From assembly GCA_021513715.1 (NCBI GenBank), contig CP084167.1, forward strand, positions 2,624,001-2,688,000: DNA of 64,000 nt, given 5' to 3'. The stretch comes from Candidatus Heimdallarchaeum endolithica. GTDB taxonomy: Archaea > Asgardarchaeota > Heimdallarchaeia > Heimdallarchaeales > Heimdallarchaeaceae. Below are positions 6,060 through 34,788 of the stretch, piece after piece. Position 1 is the stretch's first letter; every line of letters begins with the position of its first letter. A program made the translations under genes and the position numbers. The notes beneath the pieces were generated by a model. It did no database searches. It was not told the DNA's origin and saw nothing but the letters and a program-made list of their open reading frames with translations.

Positions 6060-7069
6060 TGTTTACTCAATAGACTTGGGTTACACTTTTGGGTACTAGA
6101 GAAACATAGGGGTGATTCATAAATCTTTCTCCTGGGGTGAGGAAGTTAAGAGATTGGTGAGGACGACTAAAATTGTAGTAAGAGCGGTAGTAGGAGAGAT
6201 CTGCGTTGCAGTATTTTAGACCTAATCTTTCCATCTCACGGATGATTGTCCCATGTAGTCTTTCTACTTTTCCACATGTTTCGGGGTGAAAAACTCTAGC
6301 TCTGATGTGTTTTATTCCTTCTGTTTGACACCAACGGGAGAAGGTACTTGTTCCTCCTCTAACGGAAGAGAAGAGTGCTCCATTGTCCGTGAGGATAGAC
6401 TCGGGGTAACCGTACTCTTTTATTGCTTCCTCTAGCAAACTTATTATCTGCTCTTTTTTTGGTGCAAAAGGGTGGAATTCAGCTCCCAGACAGAATCGTG
6501 AGTGGTCGTCTATCAAGGTTATGAGATGGAGATGTTGTCCCTGTTCTTCTACCCAGAATGGTCCTTTCACATCTATTTGCCAGAGTTCGTTAGGTTTTTG
6601 ACGTTCAAAACTCTTGTATCGAGGTCTTTTCCTCTTTTTTCTATTAACCCATAAAGGAAGACCTAACTCTTTTATTACTTTCGTCACTGTCGTCTGAGAG
6701 AGTGCTTTTCCTTCTCTCTTCAACAAATAAGCTATCTTCTCCACATTCATTCCTTGTTTTATTCTTAACTCCCTTATCCTCTCTTTTAACTCCTCATCTA
6801 CTTTCCTGTGTATAGTTTTTGGTCTGGAAGATCTATCTTTCCACCATACTCCTTCAGGGTTCTCTCTGAACCTCTTCAACCACTTATACACAAACTTCCT
6901 ACTCACCATATACTTGTGAGCTACCTCTTTTATCTTCTCTCCTTCCAAAGCTTTTTTAACCACAATCTTTCTTAGTTTCTCCAGGTTACGTTCGGGTTTG
7001 TTCATAATATATCACTTACCCACGTAACCCACTTCTATTTATTTGTTACCAATGTGAGTTGAGTATACA
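6060..7069 (-). mobile_element. IS481-type insertion sequence, copy B (complete, 1010 bp, TGT...ACA ends, 16-bp TSD)
   Basis: Imperfect 26-bp TIRs at 6060-6085 and 7044-7069 (19/26 match); direct repeat GCAAGTCACTTGATTG at 6044-6059 and 7070-7085. Confidence 0.96.
6067..7005 (-). CDS. IS481-family DDE transposase (HTH + rve integrase core)
   Basis: N-terminal HTH (VSRKFVYKWLKRF); WQID, IDDHSR, LTDNG and GKVER motifs; the stop codon lies inside the terminal repeat. Confidence 0.95.
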   Translation of the reverse strand: MNKPERNLEKLRKIVVKKALEGEKIKEVAHKYMVSRKFVYKWLKRFRENPEGVWWKDRSSRPKTIHRKVDEELKERIRELRIKQGMNVEKIAYLLKREGKALSQTTVTKVIKELGLPLWVNRKKRKRPRYKSFERQKPNELWQIDVKGPFWVEEQGQHLHLITLIDDHSRFCLGAEFHPFAPKKEQIISLLEEAIKEYGYPESILTDNGALFSSVRGGTSTFSRWCQTEGIKHIRARVFHPETCGKVERLHGTIIREMERLGLKYCNADLSYYRSYYNFSRPHQSLNFLTPGERFMNHPYVSLVPKSVTQVY

Positions 7070-7671: not shown

Positions 7672-7799
7672 GAGATACTTTTTTACTTAAAAAATTAAAT
7701 TTTTAGTTTGTGGAGTTATTAGACCAATAACAACCTGAAACACATTTGCATAAATAAAGAATACAAGATATTGGGGAGTGTAACAACTTTTCCGCTGTC

Positions 7800-7807
7800 T
7801 TTATATA
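7800..7807 (+). promoter_or_regulatory. Putative TATA box for the element-3 RNA
   Basis: TTTATATA about 25 nt upstream of the first hairpin (G7829). Confidence 0.55.
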
Positions 7808-7828
7808 TTTAATTCTCATTTATCTAAT

Positions 7829-8046
7829 GTCTTGAGCTATATGCTTAAAGACGTAGGTTTCATTTCTACGACACCCGGTCTTTCCTTTGGGGGTTATGAG
7901 TGCCCGGGATCAGGAGATGAACCCCTTAGAGAACTTAATTAAGACTGTGTCTTTCATGTTCTCTTAAGCAAGTCTTCACAACATTTGCTATGTTTATTGA
8001 CTGGTTGGGTAGAGTCCTGAAGAAATTAAGTAAAATTTCAACTCAT
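7829..8046 (+). ncRNA. Structured RNA, candidate omegaRNA-like scaffold
   Basis: GC-enriched. Stems 7829-7837/7843-7852, 7852-7857/7865-7870, 7874-7878/7904-7908 and 7928-7934/7958-7964; crossing pairings 7890-7895/7920-7925 and 7910-7915/8015-8020. G-U pairs favour the + strand. Confidence 0.65.
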
Positions 8047-8084
8047 TAGTATCACAAATCCTTAAAAAGAAGAAGAAAAGAAAA

Positions 8085-9308
8085 CTAAATTTCTTCACTC
8101 TCTTTTTTTGTATTGTACTCTCTAACTAATTTTGTTAATTCTGGAATGATTTTCAATATGTCTCCAATAACAGATAGGTTAGCGACTTTAAATATTGGTG
8201 CTTCAGGGTCATTGTTTACAGCAACAATAACATCAGAGCTTTTCATACCCACTAGATGTTGTACCGCTCCAGAAATGCCAAAAGCTAAGTAGAGATTAGG
8301 TGAAACAGTTTTTCCTGACTGACCAACTTGTCTAGCATGAGGTAACCATCCAATATCTACTAAAGCTCTTGACCCTGATAATGTTGCTCCCATTGCTTCA
8401 GCTAGCTCTTGAGCGATTTTTATGTTTTCTTTGCTTTCTATTCCTCTACCAACTGAAACAAGTTTATCTGCTTCTTCTATATTTACAACTTCATCCAAAA
8501 CGTGAATTTCTTCAAGTATTTTTGTTCTGATGGAAGAACGTTTAAGTTTCACTTCAAAAATTTCTGTTTTTCCTTCTTTTGTTTTATCTTCTTTAGGTTT
8601 CTTAAATACGTTTGGTCTTACAGTAGACATCTGAGGACGGGTGTATGGAGATAAGATCGAAGCCATGATATTTCCACCAAAAGCTGGTCTTGTTTGAACT
8701 AGTTGGTTCTCTTTATCAATATCTAATCCTGTACAATCCGCTGTTAGACCTAGACCTAGCCTTGCAGCTACTCTAGGGGCAAGATCTCTCCCATTAGGGG
8801 TAGCTCCATAAAGAACGATTGAAGGTTTTTTTGCAGCAATTATACTTGAAATCACTGTAGCATAACCATCAGTAGTATATGCTTCTAATAATTCATGCTC
8901 TGCTAAAATAACTTTGTCTGCTCCATGATGGAACAATGTAGAAACCAGTTGTTCAACATTGTATCCTGCTAAGACAACAGTTAACTCTTCATTTACTCTA
9001 TCTGCAAGTTCTCTCCCTTTTCCTAATAGTTCCAAAACAACATTCTTGATATGCGGAATGTTTTCTCTTTTCTCCCACTCTCCCCATATAAAAACGCCAG
9101 TGTATTGAGATAATTGTTCCTTTGAAACTGTTTTCCTTTCAATAGTAAGTGCTCCATAAGGGCAAGCATTAACACATGTTCCACATAGAGTGCAATTTTC
9201 TAAAACTTTTGCTTTTTTTGTGTCAGTTGGGACAATTATTGCTCCAAAAGGACAAACTTTTTCGCAAATTCCACAGCCAATACATTTTTCCATATCAACG
9301 ATTAACAT
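8085..9308 (-). CDS. etfA: Electron transfer flavoprotein alpha subunit with N-terminal 2x[4Fe-4S] ferredoxin domain
   Basis: CIGCGICEKVCP and CTLCGTCVNACP; GLTADCT; QVGQSGKTV; GISGAVQHLVGM. Likely start is ATG 9308 after GGAGGAG. Confidence 0.93.
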   Translation of the reverse strand: MLIVDMEKCIGCGICEKVCPFGAIIVPTDTKKAKVLENCTLCGTCVNACPYGALTIERKTVSKEQLSQYTGVFIWGEWEKRENIPHIKNVVLELLGKGRELADRVNEELTVVLAGYNVEQLVSTLFHHGADKVILAEHELLEAYTTDGYATVISSIIAAKKPSIVLYGATPNGRDLAPRVAARLGLGLTADCTGLDIDKENQLVQTRPAFGGNIMASILSPYTRPQMSTVRPNVFKKPKEDKTKEGKTEIFEVKLKRSSIRTKILEEIHVLDEVVNIEEADKLVSVGRGIESKENIKIAQELAEAMGATLSGSRALVDIGWLPHARQVGQSGKTVSPNLYLAFGISGAVQHLVGMKSSDVIVAVNNDPEAPIFKVANLSVIGDILKIIPELTKLVREYNTKKESEEI

Positions 9309-9321
9309 TTTTTCTCCTCCT

Positions 9322-18944: not shown

Positions 18945-19682
18945 TCAAAATCCTTTGTTAGGACATTCTGATGGTCCTAGAAGTAAAGGTAAAAGTTCAG
19001 TTACTGAATTTAAAGTAGCATCAGGTTCTAGCTTTCTTATCTCTTCTTCAGTATACTTCTTATTCTCTCCTAAAATTGCTATAGTTTTTGTTCCTGCTAT
19101 TTTTCCTGCTTTAATATCTTGGGGAAAATCTCCTATCATTACGCATTGGTTAGGTTTCTTCTTTAATTTCTTTAAAGCGTATAGAAGCCCGTCTGCATGT
19201 GGTTTTATTCGTTTTACTGTATTTCTAGTCACAATTACTTTGAACGATTCTAGAATTTTTAGTTTTTCTTTCGCCTTTTCTACAGTTTTATCTCCCGCAC
19301 TAGTAACTAAAGCTAAATTATACCCTCGTGAACGAAGAGTTTCCAATAATTTTCCCACTCCGTTTATAGGTACTATTTCTCTAAAAGCCATAGTATCTGA
19401 AATTAGCTGTTTTGTAATTCTGAAAGTATCTTTCCAAGATATTCCAAGTTCTTTTCTTGATTTTAAGAAGATCCTAGCTTTTAGTACTTTAGATCTACCT
19501 TCTGATGTTGTTAATGTCTCCATTAGCATTCTTTCAAATACGTTAAATAGTTTCTTTTTATCTAAATTTGGACAAACAGCAAATATTGCTCTAAAGAAAG
19601 GAGCTCTATATCTTGTCCAAAGATCAGTTAAAGTTCCATCCATATCAAACAATAAGGTATCTACTTCATTAAAGGCATTCAT
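18945..19682 (-). CDS. HAD-superfamily phosphatase (Gph-like)
   Basis: FDMDGTL, VTS, KPH and IGD motifs. Confidence 0.9.
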   Translation of the reverse strand: MNAFNEVDTLLFDMDGTLTDLWTRYRAPFFRAIFAVCPNLDKKKLFNVFERMLMETLTTSEGRSKVLKARIFLKSRKELGISWKDTFRITKQLISDTMAFREIVPINGVGKLLETLRSRGYNLALVTSAGDKTVEKAKEKLKILESFKVIVTRNTVKRIKPHADGLLYALKKLKKKPNQCVMIGDFPQDIKAGKIAGTKTIAILGENKKYTEEEIRKLEPDATLNSVTELLPLLLGPSECPNKGF

Positions 19683-19798
19683 ATTGTTTTTTTTTGTGAG
19701 TCATTTAAATTTTTATCTACACTGGTAAAAAAGAAAATTAAATCTGTGCAAGATTATTAAAAAAAGAAATTTTATAAAAAAGAAAAAATGTATTTAGA

Positions 19799-21318
19799 TT
19801 AAATTATTCTTTTTTTGCGAACAGAAATAAGTGTCATTAAGATCATAATAGCTGCTAAGGAGTAACTTAGTGAATAATCTAAAGAAAATGTGTTTAATAA
19901 ATCTGTGTTTGTATCTGTGTTTGTATCTGTGTTTGTATTATTTTCAGTTGGTTCTTCTCCTTCTTCTAAAATTCTTAATTCGTGAATAGATAGTGCTGGT
20001 ATACTTTCGTTGTCATATGTCGCATCAAAATAATTGGGTTCTTCTGATTCATATTGAGCTATATTTGTGAAATATATACTTTCTCCTAGATTGGTTTGGA
20101 AATCTCCTCCTTTAGTATCGCCTGAACTTAAAGGCTTTGAAAACTCTATTTGTCTCATACTCTGGTTATAAATGAAGGTAGCTCGTCCATCAATTGTTCC
20201 TCCAACATCAATGTCGCTAATGGGTCCTCCTTTACTTTGATCAAAGACCATATCTTCATATGATTCTGGTGTTATTACAGCAACATCTGCCCCTTTGTCA
20301 ATTTCAAACATATCTGCTGTTTGACCAAACACAAAAATATTCACATCGCCTTCATCATATTTTTCGTCATATATTTCCAAATAGATATATAGTGTAAATC
20401 CATCAGTAACAAATCGAATTTCTCCATCAAAACGATTATCGTCTTGGATATAGTGGTTTTCCCAATCTACGAAATAAATAGTCACGTGATAATTTATTGC
20501 ACTATTCCAAAAATCTTCGTTTGCAAAACCATCATAAGTAATTTCTACTGAAGAAAGATAAACACACTCATAAACCTGGTCAGAAAGTAACCAATTGATT
20601 TTTCCTCCCATTTCTGGTGTGTGTATAATATCTCCGTTATCAGTACCAAGTGAAAGGCGAATATATTTGAACGTAGAACCATCAGCAATAGACCAGTTGG
20701 GGCCACCAGGAGTAGTTTTGTCAATCCAAGCTATAATAAAAACACCAATTGAGTTTCCATAAGCTAGATTAAAATCAAAACCATTGTTATCATTAGACTG
20801 TAGTTCTTTTTGAAATTCAAAATAAGAACCATCACTAGTCATTTTCATAAATGCATTAACATTATTCTGCCCTCCTCTCTCTACATCATTAAAAGGTTCT
20901 ACGAAAAAAGAATCAAAACCATGATCTTCGACTCTATTATCTGAAGTGTTCATAAAAATTGAATCAATTGTTTCTCCTTGTTCTTCTCTCCCAAAGAACA
21001 TTATCTCTGTTGCATAAACTTGTCCTTCTAGATTAGGAATATAAACAAAACCATAAAGAAATGAGTTGTCATATGCAAAATTTACTTTTGCAGAAACAAC
21101 TATAGGGGGATCGTGGGGTTCTATTGGAAACAAATTTATCTCCACAAGGGAACTATTATCCCATTCTTGAAAGATTCCATCTAACACAATAGTGTCGTTA
21201 TAAGAAGCAATTATTGAGGGGTTATCTATTGTTTTACCATAGAGTAAATTGATTTTTGTAGTTAATCCAATTAGAAGGCAAGGAAAAAAATTATTGAAAA
21301 AATTTTTCTATGCCTCAT
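19799..21318 (-). CDS. Surface protein with two DOMON/CBM9-like domains and C-terminal TM; one-base frameshift in the signal-peptide T7 run
   Basis: Internal duplication (EFQKELQSNDNNGFDF / EFSKPLSSGDTKGGDF). ATG 21318 with a GGTGA SD joins the main ORF (506 aa) if the run at 21284-21290 has one more base. Confidence 0.65.
19901..19936. repeat. 3 x 12-bp tandem repeat (ATCTGTGTTTGT) encoding a TNTD linker
   Basis: Three exact copies, located just before the TM anchor. Confidence 0.9.
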
Positions 21319-21445
21319 TTTATCACCAACTATATTTGCTTAGACAATGTTTTGATAATATGTATTTTTTTTCAAAAAGGTAATTTGTAAAAAGAAAAAA
21401 ACATTCGTTTTTTTGCAATATGGTTGTGTGAAATTGCTATCTAAA

Positions 21446-22603
21446 TTAGTTTTTCTTTTTTTGAGTAATAAGGGTTATGACAACTGTTGCTACGATTAGA
21501 CTTATTCCACCTATAATAAAAGCTGGATATATAGGTTTAGACGGAATTGGTATTTGTTCATCTTCAATTCCCATTAATTTGTTAAGTGCTGCAGTAGCAT
21601 TTACCAGACCATAACCAAAGTATTTATCTTTTCCTTCATCTCCAAGATCAGTTGCTGTTTCACGTAAAATTTTCCTTATTTCTTCGACAGAGATAGTGTT
21701 ATTTAGTGATTTCATTAAAGCTATTATCCCCGCAATTTGAGGTGCAGCAAAAGAAGTCCCCCACCCAAAAACATAACCTTCTGGAGGATAAGTCCCTTTT
21801 ATTCCTGTCCCTTCATCTCCTACAGGAGCTACTAATTCAGTCCACTCTCCATAATTACTATAATCAGCTTTTTCTCGATCATAATTTGTTGCTCCTACTG
21901 CAATTACTTCATCATAAGCTCCAGGATAAGACATTATCTCTTTTCCTCCCCCATATGAAAGCCAAGAGTTGCCAGTTATTGAGACTACTGCAACATTATT
22001 TTCTATAGCATAAACTATATCGTCGTGATAATCTTCACTTTCAGAATAGTATTGTAAGCTTAAATTAATTACATCTGCTCCATTATCTACAGCATATCTT
22101 ATTGCATCACCTAATCCTTCTAACGTAGTTCCTTGATAATTATCTGACTTTAGTACTCGAATATCCATAATAGTTACGTTGGGTGCTACTCCTGCGGTTC
22201 CCTCACCATTGGTTGGAGCTGCAATAATTCCAGCAATAAATGTAGCATGCCAATGAATAGGGTCATCTTCTTCTGGGCCAGGGATGCTGTCATTAGAAAC
22301 AAAATCCCAACCATGTATATCATCAATATAACCATTATTATCATCGTCAATGGAATTGTTCGCTATTTCATCTTCATTAATCCAAGCTACATTCTGTAAC
22401 TCTGGATGAGAAAAATCTATTCCACTATCAATAACGGCAATAGTAATATCTCTCGAACCATTAGTCAGTTTCCAAGCTCCATAAATATTAATTTGATCGA
22501 AATACCAAGGATTTTCACTGGAAATAGCAAAAGTGTCAAAATAATAGCTAAACTGATTTAAAAGGAATAATAGAACAATTCCAATTATAACTTGTCTTTT
22601 CAT
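21446..22603 (-). CDS. Secreted, membrane-anchored subtilisin-family (S8) peptidase
   Basis: AVIDSG, HATFIAG and GTSFAAP catalytic motifs; signal peptide; C-terminal TM. Confidence 0.93.
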   Translation of the reverse strand: MKRQVIIGIVLLFLLNQFSYYFDTFAISSENPWYFDQINIYGAWKLTNGSRDITIAVIDSGIDFSHPELQNVAWINEDEIANNSIDDDNNGYIDDIHGWDFVSNDSIPGPEEDDPIHWHATFIAGIIAAPTNGEGTAGVAPNVTIMDIRVLKSDNYQGTTLEGLGDAIRYAVDNGADVINLSLQYYSESEDYHDDIVYAIENNVAVVSITGNSWLSYGGGKEIMSYPGAYDEVIAVGATNYDREKADYSNYGEWTELVAPVGDEGTGIKGTYPPEGYVFGWGTSFAAPQIAGIIALMKSLNNTISVEEIRKILRETATDLGDEGKDKYFGYGLVNATAALNKLMGIEDEQIPIPSKPIYPAFIIGGISLIVATVVITLITQKKKN

Positions 22604-22694
22604 AATTTATAACTAGATTATGGAAATATATAAGACTATAGTAATAATGAAGGATAAACACTAAAAAACGTTCGTTGAAATAATTTAAGAATAA

Positions 22695-25829
<3,135 letters not shown>

Positions 25830-25865
25830 GATAAATAATAAAAATAACAACAAAATTTTTGTTCT

Positions 25866-26687
25866 ATGAAAGGAAAGAGAGGAAAAAACTTTCGTGTAGT
25901 CCCATTTGAGAAAAATCGGAAAATTATTCTAGATTTACTTGAGCAAGGAAAGAAAAGAAATCATGTGAAAGCTTTAGTTGAAGTTGATGTAACTGATGCT
26001 AGAGAGTTTTTTAAAAAATACAAAGAAATTAAAGGAGAAAAACTTTCTTTTACTGCATGGATTATATATTGTGTAGCTAAAGCAATAGATGAAAATATAG
26101 CAGTAAATGCATATAGAAAGGGAAGAAAAAAAATAGTTATTTTTGATGAAGTTGATGTAGGAACAATTATTGAAAGAGAAATTGATGGAAAAAAAATACC
26201 TAGAAAATATATAATTAGAGAAGCAAATAGAAAGAGTTTGATAGATATTCATAATGAAATAAGGGATGTTCAAAGAAAAGAGATTAGTGGGCCTATACTA
26301 GGAAGTAAAAAGGAAACAAAATTTGTTAACTTTTTTGCTTCTTTGCCTAAGTTTATACGAAAAATTTTCTGGTGGTGGACAAAACAAAAACCTGAATTTA
26401 GAAAGAAAATGTTAGGGACGATTACAGTTTCATCAGTTGGTATGTTTGGAAGAACAGGAGGGTGGGGAATAGTTATCTCTTCTGAAACTATTCATGTTCT
26501 GATAGGCGGAATAGCTAGAAAACTTGGTGTGGTGGGTAATGAAATCTTGATTAGAGAGTACTTAGATCTTACATTAATGGCTGACCACTCAATTATTGAC
26601 GGGGGGCCTATAGCCAAACTTCTTCAACGACTCATTGATTTGATAGAAAACTCATATGGATTAGATGACAATCTGATAAAATCATAA
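25866..26687 (+). CDS. Stand-alone 2-oxoacid dehydrogenase acyltransferase (E2) catalytic-domain protein
   Basis: EVDVT, GTITVSSVG and DHSIIDG motifs; no lipoyl domain. Confidence 0.82.
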   Translation: MKGKRGKNFRVVPFEKNRKIILDLLEQGKKRNHVKALVEVDVTDAREFFKKYKEIKGEKLSFTAWIIYCVAKAIDENIAVNAYRKGRKKIVIFDEVDVGTIIEREIDGKKIPRKYIIREANRKSLIDIHNEIRDVQRKEISGPILGSKKETKFVNFFASLPKFIRKIFWWWTKQKPEFRKKMLGTITVSSVGMFGRTGGWGIVISSETIHVLIGGIARKLGVVGNEILIREYLDLTLMADHSIIDGGPIAKLLQRLIDLIENSYGLDDNLIKS

Positions 26688-26722
26688 ACAAAAACAAAAA
26701 ATGAAAAAGAGAAAAAGAAGAT

Positions 26723-27265
26723 TTATACTTTATCTGTTATGTGGTCAACAATCCTGAAAAGCATTGCAATAGGTGTTAAAGCTCCAAGTATGTAAACAAA
26801 GAAGTTGATAATTATAACAACTATTGGTACAGGGATATATAGGGAACCAATTGATAGACCTATTAAGATAACTAAGAATATGATAAATCCTAAAAGTATT
26901 TTCAAGGATCCACCAAAAGCACCAATGAAACTTACTTTTTTAGAGAATTTTGGTCCTCTTGTGGCAGTGAAAATAAAAGCTGCAAAACCACCAATCATTA
27001 TAAACAAGAATCCTAAGATTATTAGCACAAAACCAATAATACTTGCTACATTTCCAAAAAACGCCGTGGGGTCAAGTAGTACGCTGAAGTCGCCTCCAAA
27101 CAAAGCTAAAAGTGCAGTAAAGTCAAATAAGAAAAATCCTCCTACAACTAAACCAAAACCAATTATATTGTAAACTATTGCTACCAGTATGTAGATAATC
27201 GCTCTTCCATACGATTCAAAAAAATTCGAGATTCCCGACTGTTCTTTATAAACCATTTTTTTCAC
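26723..27265 (-). CDS. Hypothetical multi-pass membrane protein
   Basis: About four hydrophobic helices. Confidence 0.7.
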   Translation of the reverse strand: MKKMVYKEQSGISNFFESYGRAIIYILVAIVYNIIGFGLVVGGFFLFDFTALLALFGGDFSVLLDPTAFFGNVASIIGFVLIILGFLFIMIGGFAAFIFTATRGPKFSKKVSFIGAFGGSLKILLGFIIFLVILIGLSIGSLYIPVPIVVIIINFFVYILGALTPIAMLFRIVDHITDKV

Positions 27266-27338
27266 CTAATATTTTATTTTATGAAGATTTAGTAGAGGAG
27301 ACATATAAATCTTTGCTATCTCGGTGGTAAAAAATCTT

Positions 27339-27770
27339 TTACTGCTTGAAAATAATTGGTGTAATATAGAGCTTTCCTCCGATAACAGCTTTAAAGGAGA
27401 GAATGTCCTCGGAAAAATCTTTTATTTGCCTTGCTTTTCCTTTAAGAAAAATCGTTTCCAAACACAATTCGTGAGTAATATGAGCATGCATAGTTGATAC
27501 GATTATTTCGTCGTTATCATGTTGTATTTGAGTTAGTTTCTCTGAGCTATTAAAAGAATGGTGGTCATATAAATAAGTTAAACTTCCAACAACTTGAACA
27601 TTAGGGTCAACGTTAAGTTCAGATTTAGCTAAATGCTCCCTTACTATAAATCTAATAGCTTCAGACCTATTAGGAAATTTTTTTTCTTTTATCCATTCAT
27701 CAAGATTTGAAAGTAACTCAGGTTCGAAAGACACTCCTGTTCTAGTGACATAGGTCTTTTTTTCTTTCAT
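27339..27770 (-). CDS. nikR: Nickel-responsive regulator NikR
   Basis: RHH motif NRSEAIR; YDHH; HAHITHELCLE. Confidence 0.92.
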   Translation of the reverse strand: MKEKKTYVTRTGVSFEPELLSNLDEWIKEKKFPNRSEAIRFIVREHLAKSELNVDPNVQVVGSLTYLYDHHSFNSSEKLTQIQHDNDEIIVSTMHAHITHELCLETIFLKGKARQIKDFSEDILSFKAVIGGKLYITPIIFKQ

Positions 27771-27894
27771 AATTTTCTAATAGCTTTCAAGATTAAAGAA
27801 TATTTCCTAAATGAACTTTATTTTTTAATTATAAGAGAATAACTTAATTAGAAAATAAAATTCAATTTTTTTGTTATTCTATAAAGATGGTACT

Positions 27895-28913
27895 TGTTTA
27901 CTCAATAGACTTGGGTTACACTTTTGGGTACTAGAGAAACATAGGGGTGATTCATAAATCTTTCTCCTGGGGTGAGGAAGTTAAGAGATTGGTGAGGACG
28001 ACTAAAATTGTAGTAAGAGCGGTAGTAGGAGAGATCTACGTTGCAGTATTTTAGACCTAATCTTTCCATCTCACGGATGATTGTTGGGTCCCATGTAGTC
28101 TTTCTACTTTTCCACATGTTTCGGGGTGAAAAACTCTAGCTCTGATGTGTTTTATTCCTTCTGTTTGACACCAACGGGAGAAGGTACTTGTTCCTCCTCT
28201 AACGGAAGAGAAGAGTGCTCCATTGTCCGTGAGGATAGACTCGGGGTGACCATATTTTTCTATTGCTTCTTCTAGCAAGCTTATTATTTGCTCTTTTTTT
28301 GGTGCAAAAGGGTGGAATTTAGCTCCCAGACAGAATCGTGAGTGGTCGTCTATCAAGGTTATGAGGTGAAGATGTTGTCCCTGTTCTTCTACCCAGAATG
28401 GCCCTTTCACATCTATTTGCCAGAGTTCGTTAGGTTTTTGACGTTCAAAACTCTTGTATCGAGGTCTCTTCCTCTTTTTTCTATTAACCCATAAAGAAAG
28501 ACCTAACTCTTTTATTACTTTCGTCACTGTCGTCTGAGAGAGTGCTTTTCCTTCTCTCTTCAACAAATAAGCTATCTTCTCCACATTCATTCCTTGTTTT
28601 ATTCTTAACTCCCTTATCCTCTCTTTTAACGCCTCATCTACTTTTTTGTGTATAGTTTTTGGTCTGGAAGATCTATCTTTCCACCAACCATTCTCCTTCA
28701 GGGTTCTCTCTGAACCTCTTCAACCACTTATACACAAACTTCCTACTCACCATATACTTGTGAGCTATCTCTTTTATCTTCTCTCCTTCCAAAGCTTTTT
28801 TAACCACAATCTTTCTTAGTTTCTCCAGGTTACGTTCGTTTTTATTCATAATATATCACTTACCCACGTAACCCACTTCTATTTATTTGTTACCAATGTG
28901 AGTTGAGTATACA
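27895..28913 (-). mobile_element. IS481-type insertion sequence, copy C (1019 bp; transposase frameshifted; 16-bp TSD)
   Basis: Same ends as copy B; direct repeat CTATAAAGATGGTACT at 27879-27894 and 28914-28929; a +4 insertion near 28687 and a +5 insertion near 28085 break the ORF. Confidence 0.95.
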
Positions 28914-29101
28914 CTATAAAGATGGTACTGATAAATAATTAATTTTGCTAAATTTTTTTTAAATATAAAAACTTATCTTTTTTAACTATTGTGTGTCCCA
29001 AACTTAATTTTTTTAATAACTTTATTACCTACCACTACTCTTTTATTTTAGTTAAAATGTTTAAAGAAAACTTAATTTAAAATTAATTGGAGGCTTAGAA
29101 A

Positions 29102-29488
29102 ATGGAGCCTGGTGAATACATGATGGATTGGTGGGGTATTCCCTTTGTGGGGTATATGATGATTGGAGTAGTACTTGTGATTGTATTAATTGCGTTTCTG
29201 AAATATTTAGATGCAGAAAAACGTGGGCTGAATGGTTTATTGTGGCTTTTCTTGGTTATTGTACCAATGATAAGTGTAGTATCTATTATAGTCTATCTCA
29301 TAATAAGAATTGATTATCCTGTACAGCAACCAGTTGAACAAAGTTTGTTACACAAAGCACAAGTCTATCACAAAAACCCAACATCAATGCTTACTGCTTT
29401 AGCAAATCTTGATGAACATTATGCTAATAGTGAAATAACTCGTGAAGATTACTATCAGATGAAAAGGGACATTGAGTTATCTCAATAA
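29102..29488 (+). CDS. Small membrane protein with PLDc_N-like TM pair and C-terminal SHOCT-like motif
   Basis: DAEKRGLNGLLW TM motif; LDEHYANSEITREDYYQMK. Confidence 0.7.
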   Translation: MEPGEYMMDWWGIPFVGYMMIGVVLVIVLIAFLKYLDAEKRGLNGLLWLFLVIVPMISVVSIIVYLIIRIDYPVQQPVEQSLLHKAQVYHKNPTSMLTALANLDEHYANSEITREDYYQMKRDIELSQ

Positions 29489-29618
29489 AAATAACATACT
29501 CTTTTTTATTTTTCATTTATAGGAAATATTAATAAGATCAATAAAAAACACAAATTTTTAATGTAAAGTAAAAAATTTTCTGCTTATCATTTCTGTTATT
29601 CTCATTTTTCTGATATTT

Positions 29619-30308
29619 TTAATTTCTTTTTGTTTCTCTTTCAATTATTCCATCTCTCATGTGAATAGTCCGTTTTGCTACTTTTGCAGCAGATAAGTCA
29701 TGAGTAACCATCAAAATAGTTGTACTCTTTTTCTCATTTAATTCCTTTAAAAGTTCTAAAATTTTTTGTCCAGTTTGTGAATCTAGGTTTCCTGTAGCTT
29801 CGTCACACAATAATATTAATGGATCGTTTACTATGCTTCTCATTATTGCTACTCTTTGTCGTTCTCCCGAACTTAATTCTTCAGGAAACTTGTGTTTTAA
29901 GTTGTTTAAATCAAAATCATCAAACAGTTTGTTTACTTTTTTTCTTCTCTCAGAGTAATCTTGATAATCAAAGATAAGTGGGAGTTCTACATTTTCGTAG
30001 GCAGTCAAACCATCAATTAAGTTGAAAAATTGAAAAACAAACCCTATTTTTCTTCTTCTAAACTGTGCTAGCTCATTTGGAGAGAATTTAGTAACATCTT
30101 CTCCGTCAATTATGATAGTTCCTTTGGTTGGGTGTTCTATTGTTCCAAGTAAGTTTAATAATGTCGTTTTTCCACTTCCTGAAGGGCCTACACAAGAAAC
30201 GAACTCCCCTTTATTTATTGAGAAACTTATATCCTTAACTGCAATAACTTCATTTTCTCCAACAATAAATGACTTTTTTAAATGTTCTACTTTTACAATA
30301 GGATTCAT
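29619..30308 (-). CDS. ABC ATP-binding protein, LolD/MacB type (no intact permease adjacent)
   Basis: GPSGSGKT, IGFVFQ, LSSGERQR and CDEATGNLD motifs. Confidence 0.9.
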   Translation of the reverse strand: MNPIVKVEHLKKSFIVGENEVIAVKDISFSINKGEFVSCVGPSGSGKTTLLNLLGTIEHPTKGTIIIDGEDVTKFSPNELAQFRRRKIGFVFQFFNLIDGLTAYENVELPLIFDYQDYSERRKKVNKLFDDFDLNNLKHKFPEELSSGERQRVAIMRSIVNDPLILLCDEATGNLDSQTGQKILELLKELNEKKSTTILMVTHDLSAAKVAKRTIHMRDGIIERETKRN

Positions 30309-30491
30309 TCTTGAGAACTATCTTTAACATACACTAATAAAGTTGTTTAAAACACATTAAAACTGTTTTTCTTGAGAAATTTAACGTTTCTTTAATTTTC
30401 TTCAAACTTTCATTTATTTTATGAGCAAAAGTTAAAAAGCATAGTCTTTTTTCCACTCAGTAAAACAAAAATTATGGAGTGAATAAATAAA

Positions 30492-31094
30492 ATGGCAGAA
30501 TTTCATTTAACAACACCGATTCCTCCAGAAAAACTGGAAGAAATAAAGGTTGGGGATATTGTATATATCACGGGTATTGTTATTACTGCTCGTGATGAAG
30601 CACATCTTAAAGCCTTAGAATTGCATGAAGAAGGTAAAAAACCTCCTGTGGACTTTAAGGGAAATGGACTTTTCCATTGTGGTCCAGTTATGAAGAAGAA
30701 TGAAGATGGCTCATGGACTGTTGTTGCAGCTGGACCTACTACTTCTGCAAGAATGGAGATTTTTCAAGACAAGTTTATTAAGGCTTTTCATCCTGGAATT
30801 ATTATTGGCAAGGGAGGAATGATGGAAAGAACAGCAAAAGCATGCCAAGAAGAAAAATGCATCTACGGTTATTTTACTGGTGGAGCAGCTCTTTTAGCTG
30901 CAGATAGAATAAAAGAAGTTAAAGATGTCTTTTGGCTGGAAGAGTTAGGTATGCCTGAATGTTTATGGGTTTATCAAGTAGAAAACTTTGGCCCCTTAAC
31001 TGTTACAATTGATGTTCATGGTGGAAATCTTACAGAAGATAGCAAGAAAAATATCATGAAAAATAAAGAAAAAATTTTGGAGGAGATGAAATAA
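30492..31094 (+). CDS. Class I fumarate hydratase / tartrate dehydratase beta subunit
   Basis: TARDEAH, AGPTTSARM, GKGGM and LGMPE motifs. Confidence 0.92.
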   Translation: MAEFHLTTPIPPEKLEEIKVGDIVYITGIVITARDEAHLKALELHEEGKKPPVDFKGNGLFHCGPVMKKNEDGSWTVVAAGPTTSARMEIFQDKFIKAFHPGIIIGKGGMMERTAKACQEEKCIYGYFTGGAALLAADRIKEVKDVFWLEELGMPECLWVYQVENFGPLTVTIDVHGGNLTEDSKKNIMKNKEKILEEMK

Positions 31095-31972
31095 TGAAAG
31101 ATATTGCCCAAGTTGTTGAAGATACATCTTTTGAATTACTCAAAGTTGCAGCAACTAAATTACCGAGTGAAGTTAAAGAAACTCTTGTAAAAGGAAAAAA
31201 TGAGACTAAAGGAAGCCTAGGCAAGGCACAAATGAGTGCAATAGTAGAAAATGTTGAACTTGCTGAAACAAATATCAAACCAATGTGCCAAGATACAGGT
31301 CTGGTTGCTTTTTTTGTTAAAATAGGTGATAAATTTCCATTAAGATCAGAAGTTAAAGAGATTCTAAAGAAAGCAACTGAAAGAGCAACAAAAAACGTTC
31401 CCCTTAGACCTAATGCTGTAGATATGTTTGAAGGAAACACAAAAACAAATATAGGGTTAAGAGGATATGTTCCTTGGTTTTATTTTGATCTAGTTGAAGG
31501 TGATAAGCTTGAAATTATAGCTATGCCTAAAGGTGGAGGCAGTAGTAATGTTGGTAAAATGAAGATGATTCCTCCAGGAAAGGGAATAAAAGGAGTAAAA
31601 GAATTTGTTGTAGAAGCTTTAGCTGCTGCAGGACCTCTCGCTTGTCCTCCTTATACAGTGGGAGTAGGTGTAGGTGGAGGAGAAGATATGTGTATGAATC
31701 TAGCGAAAAAAGCTCTTCTTCGTCCTCTTTATCATTATCATGAAGATGAGCGAATTGCAGCTATCGAAAAAGAATTACTTCAAACTCTTAACCAACTAGA
31801 AATTGGTGCTATGGGACTAGGTGAAGGACCATCTGTTCTAGATGTTCATATGGAATTTGCAGCACGTCATCCAGCTAGTTTACCTGTTGGAGTCGTTATT
31901 TCTTGTTGGGCTCTAAGACATGCTGGAGCAACAATTGACAAAGATGGAAATGTTGAGTATCACCCTCATTAG
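31094..31972 (+). CDS. Class I fumarate hydratase / tartrate dehydratase alpha subunit
   Basis: PMCQDTG, PKGGGS, ACPP and SCWALR motifs. Confidence 0.92.
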   Translation: MKDIAQVVEDTSFELLKVAATKLPSEVKETLVKGKNETKGSLGKAQMSAIVENVELAETNIKPMCQDTGLVAFFVKIGDKFPLRSEVKEILKKATERATKNVPLRPNAVDMFEGNTKTNIGLRGYVPWFYFDLVEGDKLEIIAMPKGGGSSNVGKMKMIPPGKGIKGVKEFVVEALAAAGPLACPPYTVGVGVGGGEDMCMNLAKKALLRPLYHYHEDERIAAIEKELLQTLNQLEIGAMGLGEGPSVLDVHMEFAARHPASLPVGVVISCWALRHAGATIDKDGNVEYHPH

Positions 31973-31997
31973 AATATCTTCTTCTTTTTTCTATTTT

Positions 31998-32506
31998 TTA
32001 ATTTGCACAGCAAGACAATTTTTCAACATCTTTATCAAGAGCTAATATTGCCAATTTTATTGCTTCAACCTGCACTAGATAGGGAAAAAACTCTGTTGAA
32101 ATATCTATTAAAGATACTCCATATTTTTTTCCGAAACTAATAATTAATGAGGCTGTTTGAATAATTTCTCCTGCATTAAAACCAATAATATGCGCACCGA
32201 TTAAGTAATCTGTTTCCTTATCTGCTACTAGTTTTACAAATCCTTGAGTATTAAAAGAAGTAAGCGCTTGTGGAACATATTTCATAGGTAAAAGGCTAGT
32301 TTTTACTTTGTATCTATGTTTTCAAATGTTGCTCTTATTGTTTCATCATTAATGATTTTTGAAGTAATAATTTCGGCTTTACCTTCTTCCCATTTGGAAA
32401 CATAAACGTTATTTATACCTTTCAATTTAGATAAAGCCTTTTTTATATGTAATTCGCAAGATTTACAAGACATTCCTTGTATTTCTAATTTGATTTTTTC
32501 TTCCAT
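31998..32506 (-). pseudogene. merA: Internally deleted mercuric reductase: HMA (NmerA) domain plus C-terminal dimerisation domain
   Basis: GMSCKSC HMA domain (32303-32506) is followed directly by the MerA C-terminus ending LSCCAN (31998-32285); FAD/NADPH domains are absent. Confidence 0.78.
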
Positions 32507-32635
32507 TTAATTCGATTGTACAGAGGATTCTTTGTTAATAATAGCAATGGTTTAAATTTTTATGTTTGAGAAGGAGTTGTTTTTTATTTCAGATGAATTA
32601 GAAACGTTTATATCATAATAATCCAAATTTAGCTT

Positions 32636-33562
32636 ATGAATAGTGAAGAAATTCGAGAAATTACTCCTGAAGATATTGACGAAGGAAGAGAACAAAGTGT
32701 TAGAGAAAAAAGAAAAAGAGAAAAAAATCAGAGTAGAATTGAAACTGAAGAAGACAAAGAAGCACAAAAATTAATCGAAGAAAAAAAACTTAGAAAAACT
32801 GTTTACAAGAAAATCATCGTCGATTTAAGGGGAACAAAATTTCATACTGATGAATGGGGAATAAAACTTGACCAACAAAGGCAATCTAAATCAAGACAAT
32901 GGACAAAAGATATGGATACAATTGGTGACGTTAAAATTAACAACAAAGCTTGGGGAAAATTGGGTATAAGAGAAGAAAAATGGAAAAAAGTTGATCCACT
33001 TAAAAAACGTTTTGTGATGAAACTCTTTACTAATAGTTTTTACTGGAGGGGAACAATAGAGTTTCTTCAAGGAGAAAGTGTATTATTATCCTATGTCACA
33101 AATGAAAACTGCCCAGTATACATGTGTAACATCAGTACTAGTTTAAATTTGGTACGTATTAGGCGTCTTCCTCATAAGCCTAGGTTTAGAGGAGAAGTAT
33201 TCGGTTTTGAACTTGTAGATGATAATGGTATACATAATGTATTTATGATTGATGATAAAAGGTTTACACTAGGTTCTGATTGGTATGTTAAAGATGTTCA
33301 CAAGAATATTGTGGCCATTATCAATGGAAAATTCTTCAATGTAGGTGGACGATACGATATTGAAATATATGACAAAAAACTTGCCTCAAATAAAGAATTC
33401 TTCTCTACATTGATTCTATTTGCTTCTACATTACGTTGGCATAAAGACATAAAAAAACTCCTGAAGAAAGTAATGTACGAAATAAGGAGAAAGAATCAAA
33501 CCTTAAAGTTACAAGAAAGTGAAGCAGATTTATACCTTAATCCTCGGAAAATGAACTATTAA
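32636..33562 (+). CDS. Protein with LURP-one/scramblase (Tubby-C-like) domain
   Basis: IDDKRFTLGSDWYV...VAIINGKFFNVGGRYDIEI followed by a hydrophobic helix. Confidence 0.55.
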   Translation: MNSEEIREITPEDIDEGREQSVREKRKREKNQSRIETEEDKEAQKLIEEKKLRKTVYKKIIVDLRGTKFHTDEWGIKLDQQRQSKSRQWTKDMDTIGDVKINNKAWGKLGIREEKWKKVDPLKKRFVMKLFTNSFYWRGTIEFLQGESVLLSYVTNENCPVYMCNISTSLNLVRIRRLPHKPRFRGEVFGFELVDDNGIHNVFMIDDKRFTLGSDWYVKDVHKNIVAIINGKFFNVGGRYDIEIYDKKLASNKEFFSTLILFASTLRWHKDIKKLLKKVMYEIRRKNQTLKLQESEADLYLNPRKMNY

Positions 33563-33960
33563 TATAATCTTTATTATATTATTTTTTTAAGCTCTTTTTC
33601 TAATTCAGGAAGGGTATATTGAACATTTCCTTGAACAAAATATTGTATTTTGTTCATATTAGATGTAGAAGTATAGTTAAATAAGACACGGGTAGTTTTT
33701 CTATTTTCAAAGAAAAGATATGAAGCAGGGTAAACCTCTAGACTTGTTCCTACTGCAATAAGCAGATCGCACTGTCTAGAAGTCTCAAAGGCAGCAGTAT
33801 AAACTTCTTGAGGTAGAAATTCCCCAAAGAGAATAACTTTTGGTTTTAATGGGTTGTTACATTTAGGACATTGAGGAAAAGGTTTCTCGCTAAGATGCTT
33901 TTTTTCATCAACTACTTCTTCATATTGGCACCAAAGACAATGTAACTTACTTGTTGTACC

Positions 33961-34243
33961 ATCAACTTAATTTTTGTACAATATTTTTGTACGCCAATCT
34001 TGCTCTCGGAAAGATCTGTCTAGGAGGGAGATCTAAACACTCATTGAGCCAGAGGAGAAGGTTGAGCACTCTTCCACCGTGGAAACTGGATGAATAAATC
34101 CTCTCACACGGGAAAGTTAAGTCGTATTCAACTTTTCTTTGATTTCTTTCTTTATGCGAATGTTTTTTTTTATCCTGACACGCCGTGCCAGCTTAGAGAG
34201 TAAGTATTTTTCTTAACATCTATCTTTTTTTTTCACTCTCTAC
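33961..34243 (-). ncRNA. Structured RNA inside element 2, candidate omegaRNA-like scaffold
   Basis: Stems 34233-34242/34194-34203 and 34185-34191/34175-34181, plus AAAGUUGA/UUAACUUU, UUCCAC/GUGGAA and AGAUCU/AGAUCU. G-U pairs favour the - strand; starts about 24 nt after a TATA box. Confidence 0.62.
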
Positions 34244-34262
34244 ATTAATAATGTCTTTTCAC

Positions 34263-34270
34263 TATTTAAA
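34263..34270 (-). promoter_or_regulatory. Putative TATA box for the element-2 RNA
   Basis: TTTAAATA on the - strand, at the expected distance from the first hairpin. Confidence 0.55.
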
Positions 34271-34788
34271 CACCAATTTTTTAATTTGACAAAAATGTAC
34301 AAAAAAGCTCTTCATGAATCTCAAAAACATTTTTTGTGTTTGCTTTCTGATGTAAGGCATCTATATTTTGTGTGGCTACAAAAACCTTCTCTTCTCCTAA
34401 CATTTTTGTATGTTTGATATTGCATAATGAGCTTCGTTTGGTTCTGCAGATTTAATAATGGAAAAAGCTTCTAAAAAAAATTCCCAAACCCTTTCCGGAT
34501 TCTTTCTAAAAGCACTTATAGTGCCATATTTATTAGGGTCAAATTTTTGCCATATTCCATTCGGCGAACGAAAATCTGGAATCCCGCTAGGTGTACTAAT
34601 ACCTGCGCCAGTAAAGAAAAGAATCTTTTCAGCATTTTTTGCTAATGTAGCTATATTGCTAATTTCACTTTTACTATTCATTAAATTACATTTAATTCTT
34701 GAGGTAAAAAATATTCTTGCTCTACCTTCTAACTAAATATTCTGAGGTAAAAAACAATATAATAATCTCTTTTTCTATATATTTCAAT

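Follow-up and report, generated by a model that had tools for sequence, protein, structure and literature searches.

Putatively RNA-guided, non-autonomous elements with an AT core in Candidatus Heimdallarchaeum endolithica

Introduction

Solo tnpB elements and RNA-only derivatives that are served in trans are both published ideas (PMC10055086; PMC10691335). Here we describe a family of elements with AT on both sides in Candidatus Heimdallarchaeum endolithica, whose genome paper counts transposase families and gives no description of these elements (PMC8813620). The stretch analyzed, designated the window, comprises 64,000 nucleotides (positions 2,624,001-2,688,000 of one single contig of 3,326,783 bp) and holds three members. 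Element 1 encodes a nuclease, TnpB-A, and elements 2 and 3 are protein-free cassettes of ∼350 bp; a second nuclease, TnpB-B, is encoded by elements elsewhere in the genome. Coordinates are those of the window unless given as genomic. The literature searched, most of which lay outside the subscription journals, contained no account of a family that combines an AT core, equidistant inverted ends and two nuclease lineages with the lack of a transposase.

On balance, we favor reading the family as RNA-guided transposons of the OMEGA type that belong to Heimdallarchaeaceae and are non-autonomous. Their transposase would be encoded elsewhere and would most likely be a serine recombinase, with AT as its 2-bp crossover, that excises the elements precisely and then re-inserts them. 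Transcription of the right end would give a pseudoknot-closed scaffold and would continue into the flank, which would become the guide. TnpB would cut empty sites carrying its motif and a guide match, and repair from the filled chromosome would restore the element. TnpB-A would read (A/C/G)CAT and TnpB-B would read TCAT, so that neither cuts itself. The cassettes would have lost tnpB, kept promoter and scaffold, and borrowed a nuclease. With TnpB/OMEGA systems the family shares a RuvC triad and zinc finger, a conserved predicted right-end scaffold with a terminal pseudoknot, and a variable flank.

Like the IS607 family, including CboIStron (PMC6188088; 10.1101/2023.11.20.567912; PMC10711439), the AT family has a 2-bp sequence common to both ends and the target, short repeated motifs near the ends, a core taken into the predicted RNA scaffold and a predicted nuclease motif one base off the right end. 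Unlike IS607, whose core is usually GG, it has an AT core in every complete copy; its inverted motifs are equidistant from the two ends, whereas in IS607 the distances differ; and it combines two distant TnpB lineages with no tnpA in any copy. Its proposed working is that of an IS607-type retention system, but the lack of tnpA and of a GG core places it outside IS607. Non-autonomous tnpB elements, and protein-free derivatives proposed as served in trans, are shared with the IS200/IS605 solo-tnpB (IS1341-type) elements and PATEs (PMC10055086). The AT family differs from these in its symmetric inverted ends, constrained 3′ flank, lack of strong end hairpins and lack of a matching Y1 transposase. 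The original prediction for this locus, made from the letters of the window, spoke of a candidate new system, which overstates the case because trans-served RNA-only derivatives had already been proposed for IS200/IS605 PATEs (PMC10055086).

Two further systems resemble the nuclease-bearing elements. TnpB-A falls in one clade with the TnpBs of the Cas1H-Asgard loci and shares the ACTCA scaffold end with them (PMC10691335), but Asgard Cas1 (aCas1) was found neither in or near the elements nor in the 31 family genomes searched, and the predicted guide is host flank, whereas theirs is a variable region inside the locus. Common to the AT family and to Fanzor and DDE-linked TnpB elements (PMC10711439, PMC10691335) are the inverted ends, a short flanking repeat inside the scaffold and the shifted RuvC-II glutamate of TnpB-A. 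The AT family differs in that the DPG motif is not present, the best structural matches are Cas12f and TnpB, and there is no DDE gene.

Results

Copies and insertion sites

Pairing of ends gave 43 complete elements in the genome: 12 with TnpB-A, two of a subfamily designated A3, three with TnpB-B, one 252-bp B remnant, seven resembling element 2 and 18 resembling element 3. All 43 have CAT on the 5′ side and AT on the 3′ side, which exceeds chance by far. The base directly 3′ of the AT is G at 33 of the 43 sites against a background of 12% (P = 4e-22), so the target is near-palindromic (mostly CATG). Copies are up to 99.7% alike, which shows recent movement. The original prediction had expected a mobile, multicopy family with several subfamilies and CAT/AT flanks at other copies, and each of these expectations is borne out. 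Of the results that it had named as refuting, none that the sequence could reveal was obtained.

The three window elements lie where they had been placed, with AT on both sides of each. Element 1 (15487-17321, minus strand), a solo-TnpB member of lineage A with 1835 bp between the two ATs, splits an ABC-transporter gene. Element 2 (33963-34313, minus strand) is a 351-bp B-type cassette that interrupts the EIHG motif of a sirtuin gene at its His codon, and element 3 (7672-8044, plus strand) is a 373-bp A-type cassette that directly adjoins the start codon of a NUDIX gene. Features given below lie on the strand of their element. The proposed spacing of the inverted motifs, 7/7, 8/8 and 9/9 nt from the AT at the two ends, was confirmed, as was the restoration of host sequence by excision. 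In the same-genus comparison genome, that of Ca. Heimdallarchaeum aukensis, all three loci are empty with a single AT each, and removal of each element with one AT gave a gapless junction alignment with the empty allele, recovering the ABC reading frame and the sirtuin EIHG motif. One AT is gained per insertion at these three orthologous sites, where a 2-bp core and a 2-bp duplication look alike.

The left end of element 1 (17294-17321), with two TTTTGCG-type units, is identical at 23 of 28 positions to the reverse complement of the right end (15487-15514), which is also the 3′ end of the predicted guide-RNA scaffold. True inverted repeats, a palindromic CATG target and AT on both sides, against one in the empty site, would also suit a trans-acting DDE transposase that recognizes terminal inverted repeats and duplicates AT, with the guide-RNA part as proposed above; DDE-linked TnpBs all have inverted ends (PMC10691335). 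We consider this unlikely. DDE transposon ends usually conserve their termini, whereas close copies here show free variation over the outermost 6-7 nt of the left end, and B-type ends differ at the terminal base. Retention driven by TnpB also requires scarless excision. The four multicopy DDE families resident in the genome (IS5-like, IS481-like, IS6 and ISH3-like), found in a survey of multicopy open reading frames and DNA repeats, were rejected as mobilizers because their ends differ; where measured, their duplications are longer.

Over all 43 elements, the first left-end base and the base that follows the target AT are correlated (P = 0.01; 30 of 35 are G/G), which hints at crossover pairing that extends by one base. 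Below, G000 and G001 denote the two Heimdallarchaeum genomes, G002 and up the other genomes compared, and L-numbers extracted loci. Between genomes, some copies have one flank in common and the other different (L174, L181 versus L186; L290 versus L291), which suggests rearrangement by recombination between copies. At L181 (H. aukensis 2,602,745), a TnpB-B element lies inside the pseudoknot loop of an element 3 copy, at a TCAT on the opposite strand.

Two nuclease lineages

TnpB-A (485 aa; 15723-17180) was identified by Pfam, NCBIfam, alignment and predicted fold. In the alignment a D-E-D triad is invariant, formed by D241 of RuvC-I, an alternative E401 and D435 of RuvC-III; G346 stands where the RuvC-II glutamate is usual, and a C4 zinc finger is present. 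The structure model matched Cas12f and TnpB best, with Fanzor2 at rank 20. Against the NCBIfam model guided_TnpB, TnpB-B scored above the cut-off and TnpB-A scored 84.5 of 100. The earlier description of TnpB-A as Fanzor-like therefore stands for the shifted RuvC-II glutamate, but not for the motif, which is DLG rather than the Fanzor DPG, nor for its grouping with aCas1-linked Asgard TnpBs. A TATA-like box of presumed function upstream of tnpB-A (17243-17252) is kept in A copies and relatives. TnpB-B, a lineage that the original prediction did not contain, is about 27% identical to TnpB-A and keeps the usual RuvC-II glutamate, and its end grammar is identical in five genomes of two other genera.

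Named relatives of TnpB-A come almost all from Heimdallarchaeia and Thorarchaeota, the closest being aCas1-linked Asgard TnpBs (30-35% identity). A quick tree, which carried long-branch warnings and was not used for transfer direction, joined A and A3 in a single clade with the aCas1-linked proteins and two further subclades of the family, TnpB-B standing apart. More distant relatives adjoin a giant gene with a Cas1-fold N-terminal domain and carry the GTTCACTCA motif, and therefore match the Cas1H-Asgard groups of PMC10691335. Given this adjacency, an aCas1 integrase might be proposed as the mobilizer: 33 of about 107 related loci have the giant divergent gene, the N-terminal domain of which has a Cas1-like fold (Z 8-12). 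We find this hardly credible, as the aCas1 domain profile has no match in the 31 family genomes searched, this one included, and the aCas1-linked loci finish with the GTTCACTCA motif instead of AT-type ends.

The giant genes themselves (33 loci in all, including L162:4107-9740 and L163:4935-9734 (minus strand)) encode 1600-1900 aa, are divergent from Thorarchaeota-type tnpB, and continue after the Cas1-fold N-terminus with PD-(D/E)xK-like and Walker-B-like motifs. At aCas1-linked loci, GTTCACTCA is followed by a 12-20 nt variable stretch and then by a conserved (A/G)GGTCA. A further TnpB-A subclade (g2; L221-L233) has a long structured leader and often lies in variable regions directly after a gene for a ∼900-aa ATPase, which by eye we take to be VirB4/TraD-like.

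Guide-RNA scaffolds and cassettes

The predicted omega-RNA scaffold of element 1 (15485-15752), supported by fold, pairing and a model match, begins in the last tnpB codons, its 5′ limit being set by cassette alignment; the fold has z = -4.6 (15485-15725). The predicted guide (15465-15484, an assumed length) would be host flank in the ABC gene, by extension from TnpB biology. The predicted scaffold of element 3 (7828-8046; fold z = -2.7) is likewise supported by alignment and model matches. The scaffold core of element 2 (33961-34116) is homologous to TnpB-B right ends and shows covariation; over its last 154 nt, the element shares 76-80% identity with the right ends of three TnpB-B elements at other genomic sites. 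An Rfam search gave no match.

Each lineage has an upstream loop with complementarity to the final bases of the element, and the two sides change jointly. Loop ATGATT (15628-15633) pairs with terminal AATCAT in element 1, TCAAC (34061-34065) with GTTGA in element 2, and ATGAGT (7896-7901) with ACTCAT in element 3. Lineage A has two variants of this pseudoknot (ATGAGT/ACTCAT and ATGATT/AATCAT) and lineage B has four (TCAAC/GTTGA, TCGAC/GTCGA, ATAGTC/GACTAT and ATCGGT/ACCGAT). Conservation of the right end stops at the AT, after which the flank is variable. IS607 TnpB RNAs need a terminal pseudoknot (PMC10711439).

The interiors of the three elements had been called unrelated, which does not hold. 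Element 3 aligns with sequence downstream of tnpB in TnpB-A relatives; its RNA model matches these post-tnpB regions and also the right end of element 1 (15485-15677, E = 0.0055), stopping exactly at the AT. Elements 2 and 3 are B- and A-type cassettes, respectively. A-type cassettes occur in other genera (G002, G016, G017 and G043) and B-type cassettes outside the genus in G002; the element 2 family in this genome consists of six copies 98-99% alike and one at 79%. Element 3 has a TATA-like box (7800-7807) 28 nt before the scaffold, and A cassettes of three genera keep about this spacing. The TATA-like box of element 2, TTTAAATA (34263-34270), has a motif also found in B cassettes of another genus. 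A hairpin (34175-34191) is common to B cassettes of two genera with one compensatory pair, and only its 11-nt centre was found in tnpB-B coding DNA. The earlier suggestion that cassettes are built to express guide RNA is supported at the level of sequence. Note that a sigma-70 promoter scan is uninformative for archaea.

A lineage-specific target rule at base -4

The base before CAT (position -4) separates the lineages, a rule that goes beyond the original prediction. T stands there at 1 of 32 A-type sites and at 10 of 11 B-type sites (Fisher P = 6e-8; background 37%). Among cassettes alone, the counts are 1 of 18 in the element 3 family (P = 0.003) and 6 of 7 in the element 2 family (P = 0.013). 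A hand count in other genomes gave 0 of 36 A-type and 17 of 17 B-type sites, with one site per set common to two species. Subfamily A3 has a B-like end motif, an A nuclease and CCAT at 3 of 3 sites; the rule thus follows the nuclease, not the end motif.

The simplest reading would be nuclease motifs of (A/C/G)CAT for A and TCAT for B, with copies, cassettes included, persisting where a nuclease can guard them. A-type right ends finish in TCAT and B-type right ends in TGAT, CGAT or CTAT, so these motifs would exclude each lineage's own right end as a target. A like self/non-self logic has been shown experimentally for an IS607 IStron, with TGGG versus TCGG (10.1101/2023.11.20.567912). Because cassettes obey the lineage-specific rule, their RNAs are indirectly indicated to be used in trans. 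By our estimate such use is probable for the RNA of element 2 and only narrowly favored for that of element 3, the scaffold of which is distant from that of the resident TnpB-A.

Elements 2 and 3 might instead be deletion derivatives resembling miniature inverted-repeat transposable elements, with an RNA that is a passive relic unused by TnpB. Element 2 retains a tnpB-like start remnant and an 11-nt coding remnant, as this would have it, and element 3 has its closest nuclease subclade absent here and weak covariation among its copies. Adherence of cassettes to the target rule, the constant spacing of TATA box and scaffold, and the hairpin common to two genera with a compensatory change argue the other way, and we regard the relic as possible, if somewhat unlikely.

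Several observations weigh against the favored reading of guide RNAs and a trans-acting transposase. The element 3 scaffold scores 28-48 bits with that of a TnpB subclade of other genera and 15 bits with that of element 1; the subclade was not found in this genome, so element 3 may be without a fitting nuclease here. Element 3 copies covary weakly among themselves (2 of 59 pairs), and the fold of element 2 is modest (z = -1.8). About five related copies have GAT, AAT or CAC flanks. The -4 rule could be the product of two transposases with different preferences. Finally, no transposase gene lies inside any examined copy in this genome, relatives or metagenome contigs, and since no transposase was identified, the chemistry is a guess from the junctions.

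Search for the mobilizer

The earlier proposal of mobilization in trans is supported, and a serine, DDE or IS110 recombinase gene bounded by family ends was looked for and not found. IS607 TnpA (NF033518) gave no match above cut-off in G000 or G001, and true IS607 elements of relatives have left ends different from those of the AT family; the label IS607-like is therefore a resemblance only. In G000 there was no match to the IS110/IS1111 DEDD recombinase (PF02371). In the same genome, PF00239 gave two matches, both host genes, PF01867 found CRISPR Cas1 only, and PF00589 gave one match, a tyrosine recombinase. End-profile scans of the genome revealed no element with any other gene. No transposase was found inside elements among the neighbors of about 107 TnpB-A and 18 TnpB-B loci, or by pattern searches for two end motifs in 31 genomes. 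There is no joined-end copy, the trace of a circular intermediate, in the assembly, and no second genomic target was found for any predicted guide.

PF01797 identified one IS605 with the single Y1 tnpA of the genome. A Y1 (HUH) transposase of the IS200/IS605 type, which would take CAT as its target motif and treat the final AT as belonging to the right end, would fit the empty sites equally well. It is nevertheless a very improbable mobilizer: the 3′ flank is strongly G-biased, the symmetric, inverted ends have weak hairpins (-0.6 to -5.2 kcal/mol), and the resident IS605 has its own hairpin ends and a tnpA region interrupted by an element 3 copy. This copy (L167, genome 925,511-925,881) lies at the start of the tnpA.

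A serine chemistry, as in the favored reading, is the best fit because the core is a palindrome of 2 bp, the terminal bases are loose and internal motifs are repeated, although we would put it no higher than evenly balanced. Two small serine recombinases (L001:1219-1941, genome 317 kb; L002:1201-1950, 405 kb) are restricted to the family among the genomes searched: they occur in 28 of the 30 further family genomes, against 0 of 16 from sister families. The two genes span genome positions 316731-317582 and 405351-406154. They are candidate mobilizers by co-distribution only; their genes are not flanked by family ends and are never adjacent to tnpB. One paralogue occupies a fixed locus and keeps about 75% identity between genera. 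In G003 and G005 the fixed-locus paralogue is without the catalytic motif, and AT-type elements were not detected there.

Other repeated loci

An IS481-like element with TGT..ACA ends and about 25 copies occurs in the window at 6067-7005 and in the 28057-28590 region (genome 2,631,069 and 2,652,914), with unusually long target duplications of about 16 bp. A PD-(D/E)xK-like gene of 4-5 copies (genome 2,102,687; 2,241,054; 2,352,446; 2,398,065), several of them beside MinD/ParA-like genes, was rejected as the mobilizer, not being bounded by family ends; it probably belongs to the aloposons of PMC8813620.

Discussion

The family offers two compact, putatively RNA-guided nucleases, the motifs of which can be predicted from over 90 natural insertion sites, together with natural stand-alone guide cassettes, all assay-ready. 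The in-trans use proposed for PATE-like guide RNAs thereby becomes directly testable. TnpB on symmetric inverted-repeat elements in an Asgard archaeon represents the architecture of Fanzor elements, apparently reached independently, and the mobilizer may prove to be either a transposase of a new type or a recombinase of the host.

A more speculative proposal, which we think improbable as a whole, is that there is no autonomous member and that one host small serine recombinase moves all elements, so that two captured TnpB lineages and many guide-RNA cassettes would form a genome-wide, trans-acting retention network. If true, this would be an RNA-guided retention network in a close relative of eukaryotes. 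For the organism itself, the elements break genes, and they appear to lie at the points where the genomes of the two Heimdallarchaeum species are rearranged relative to each other.

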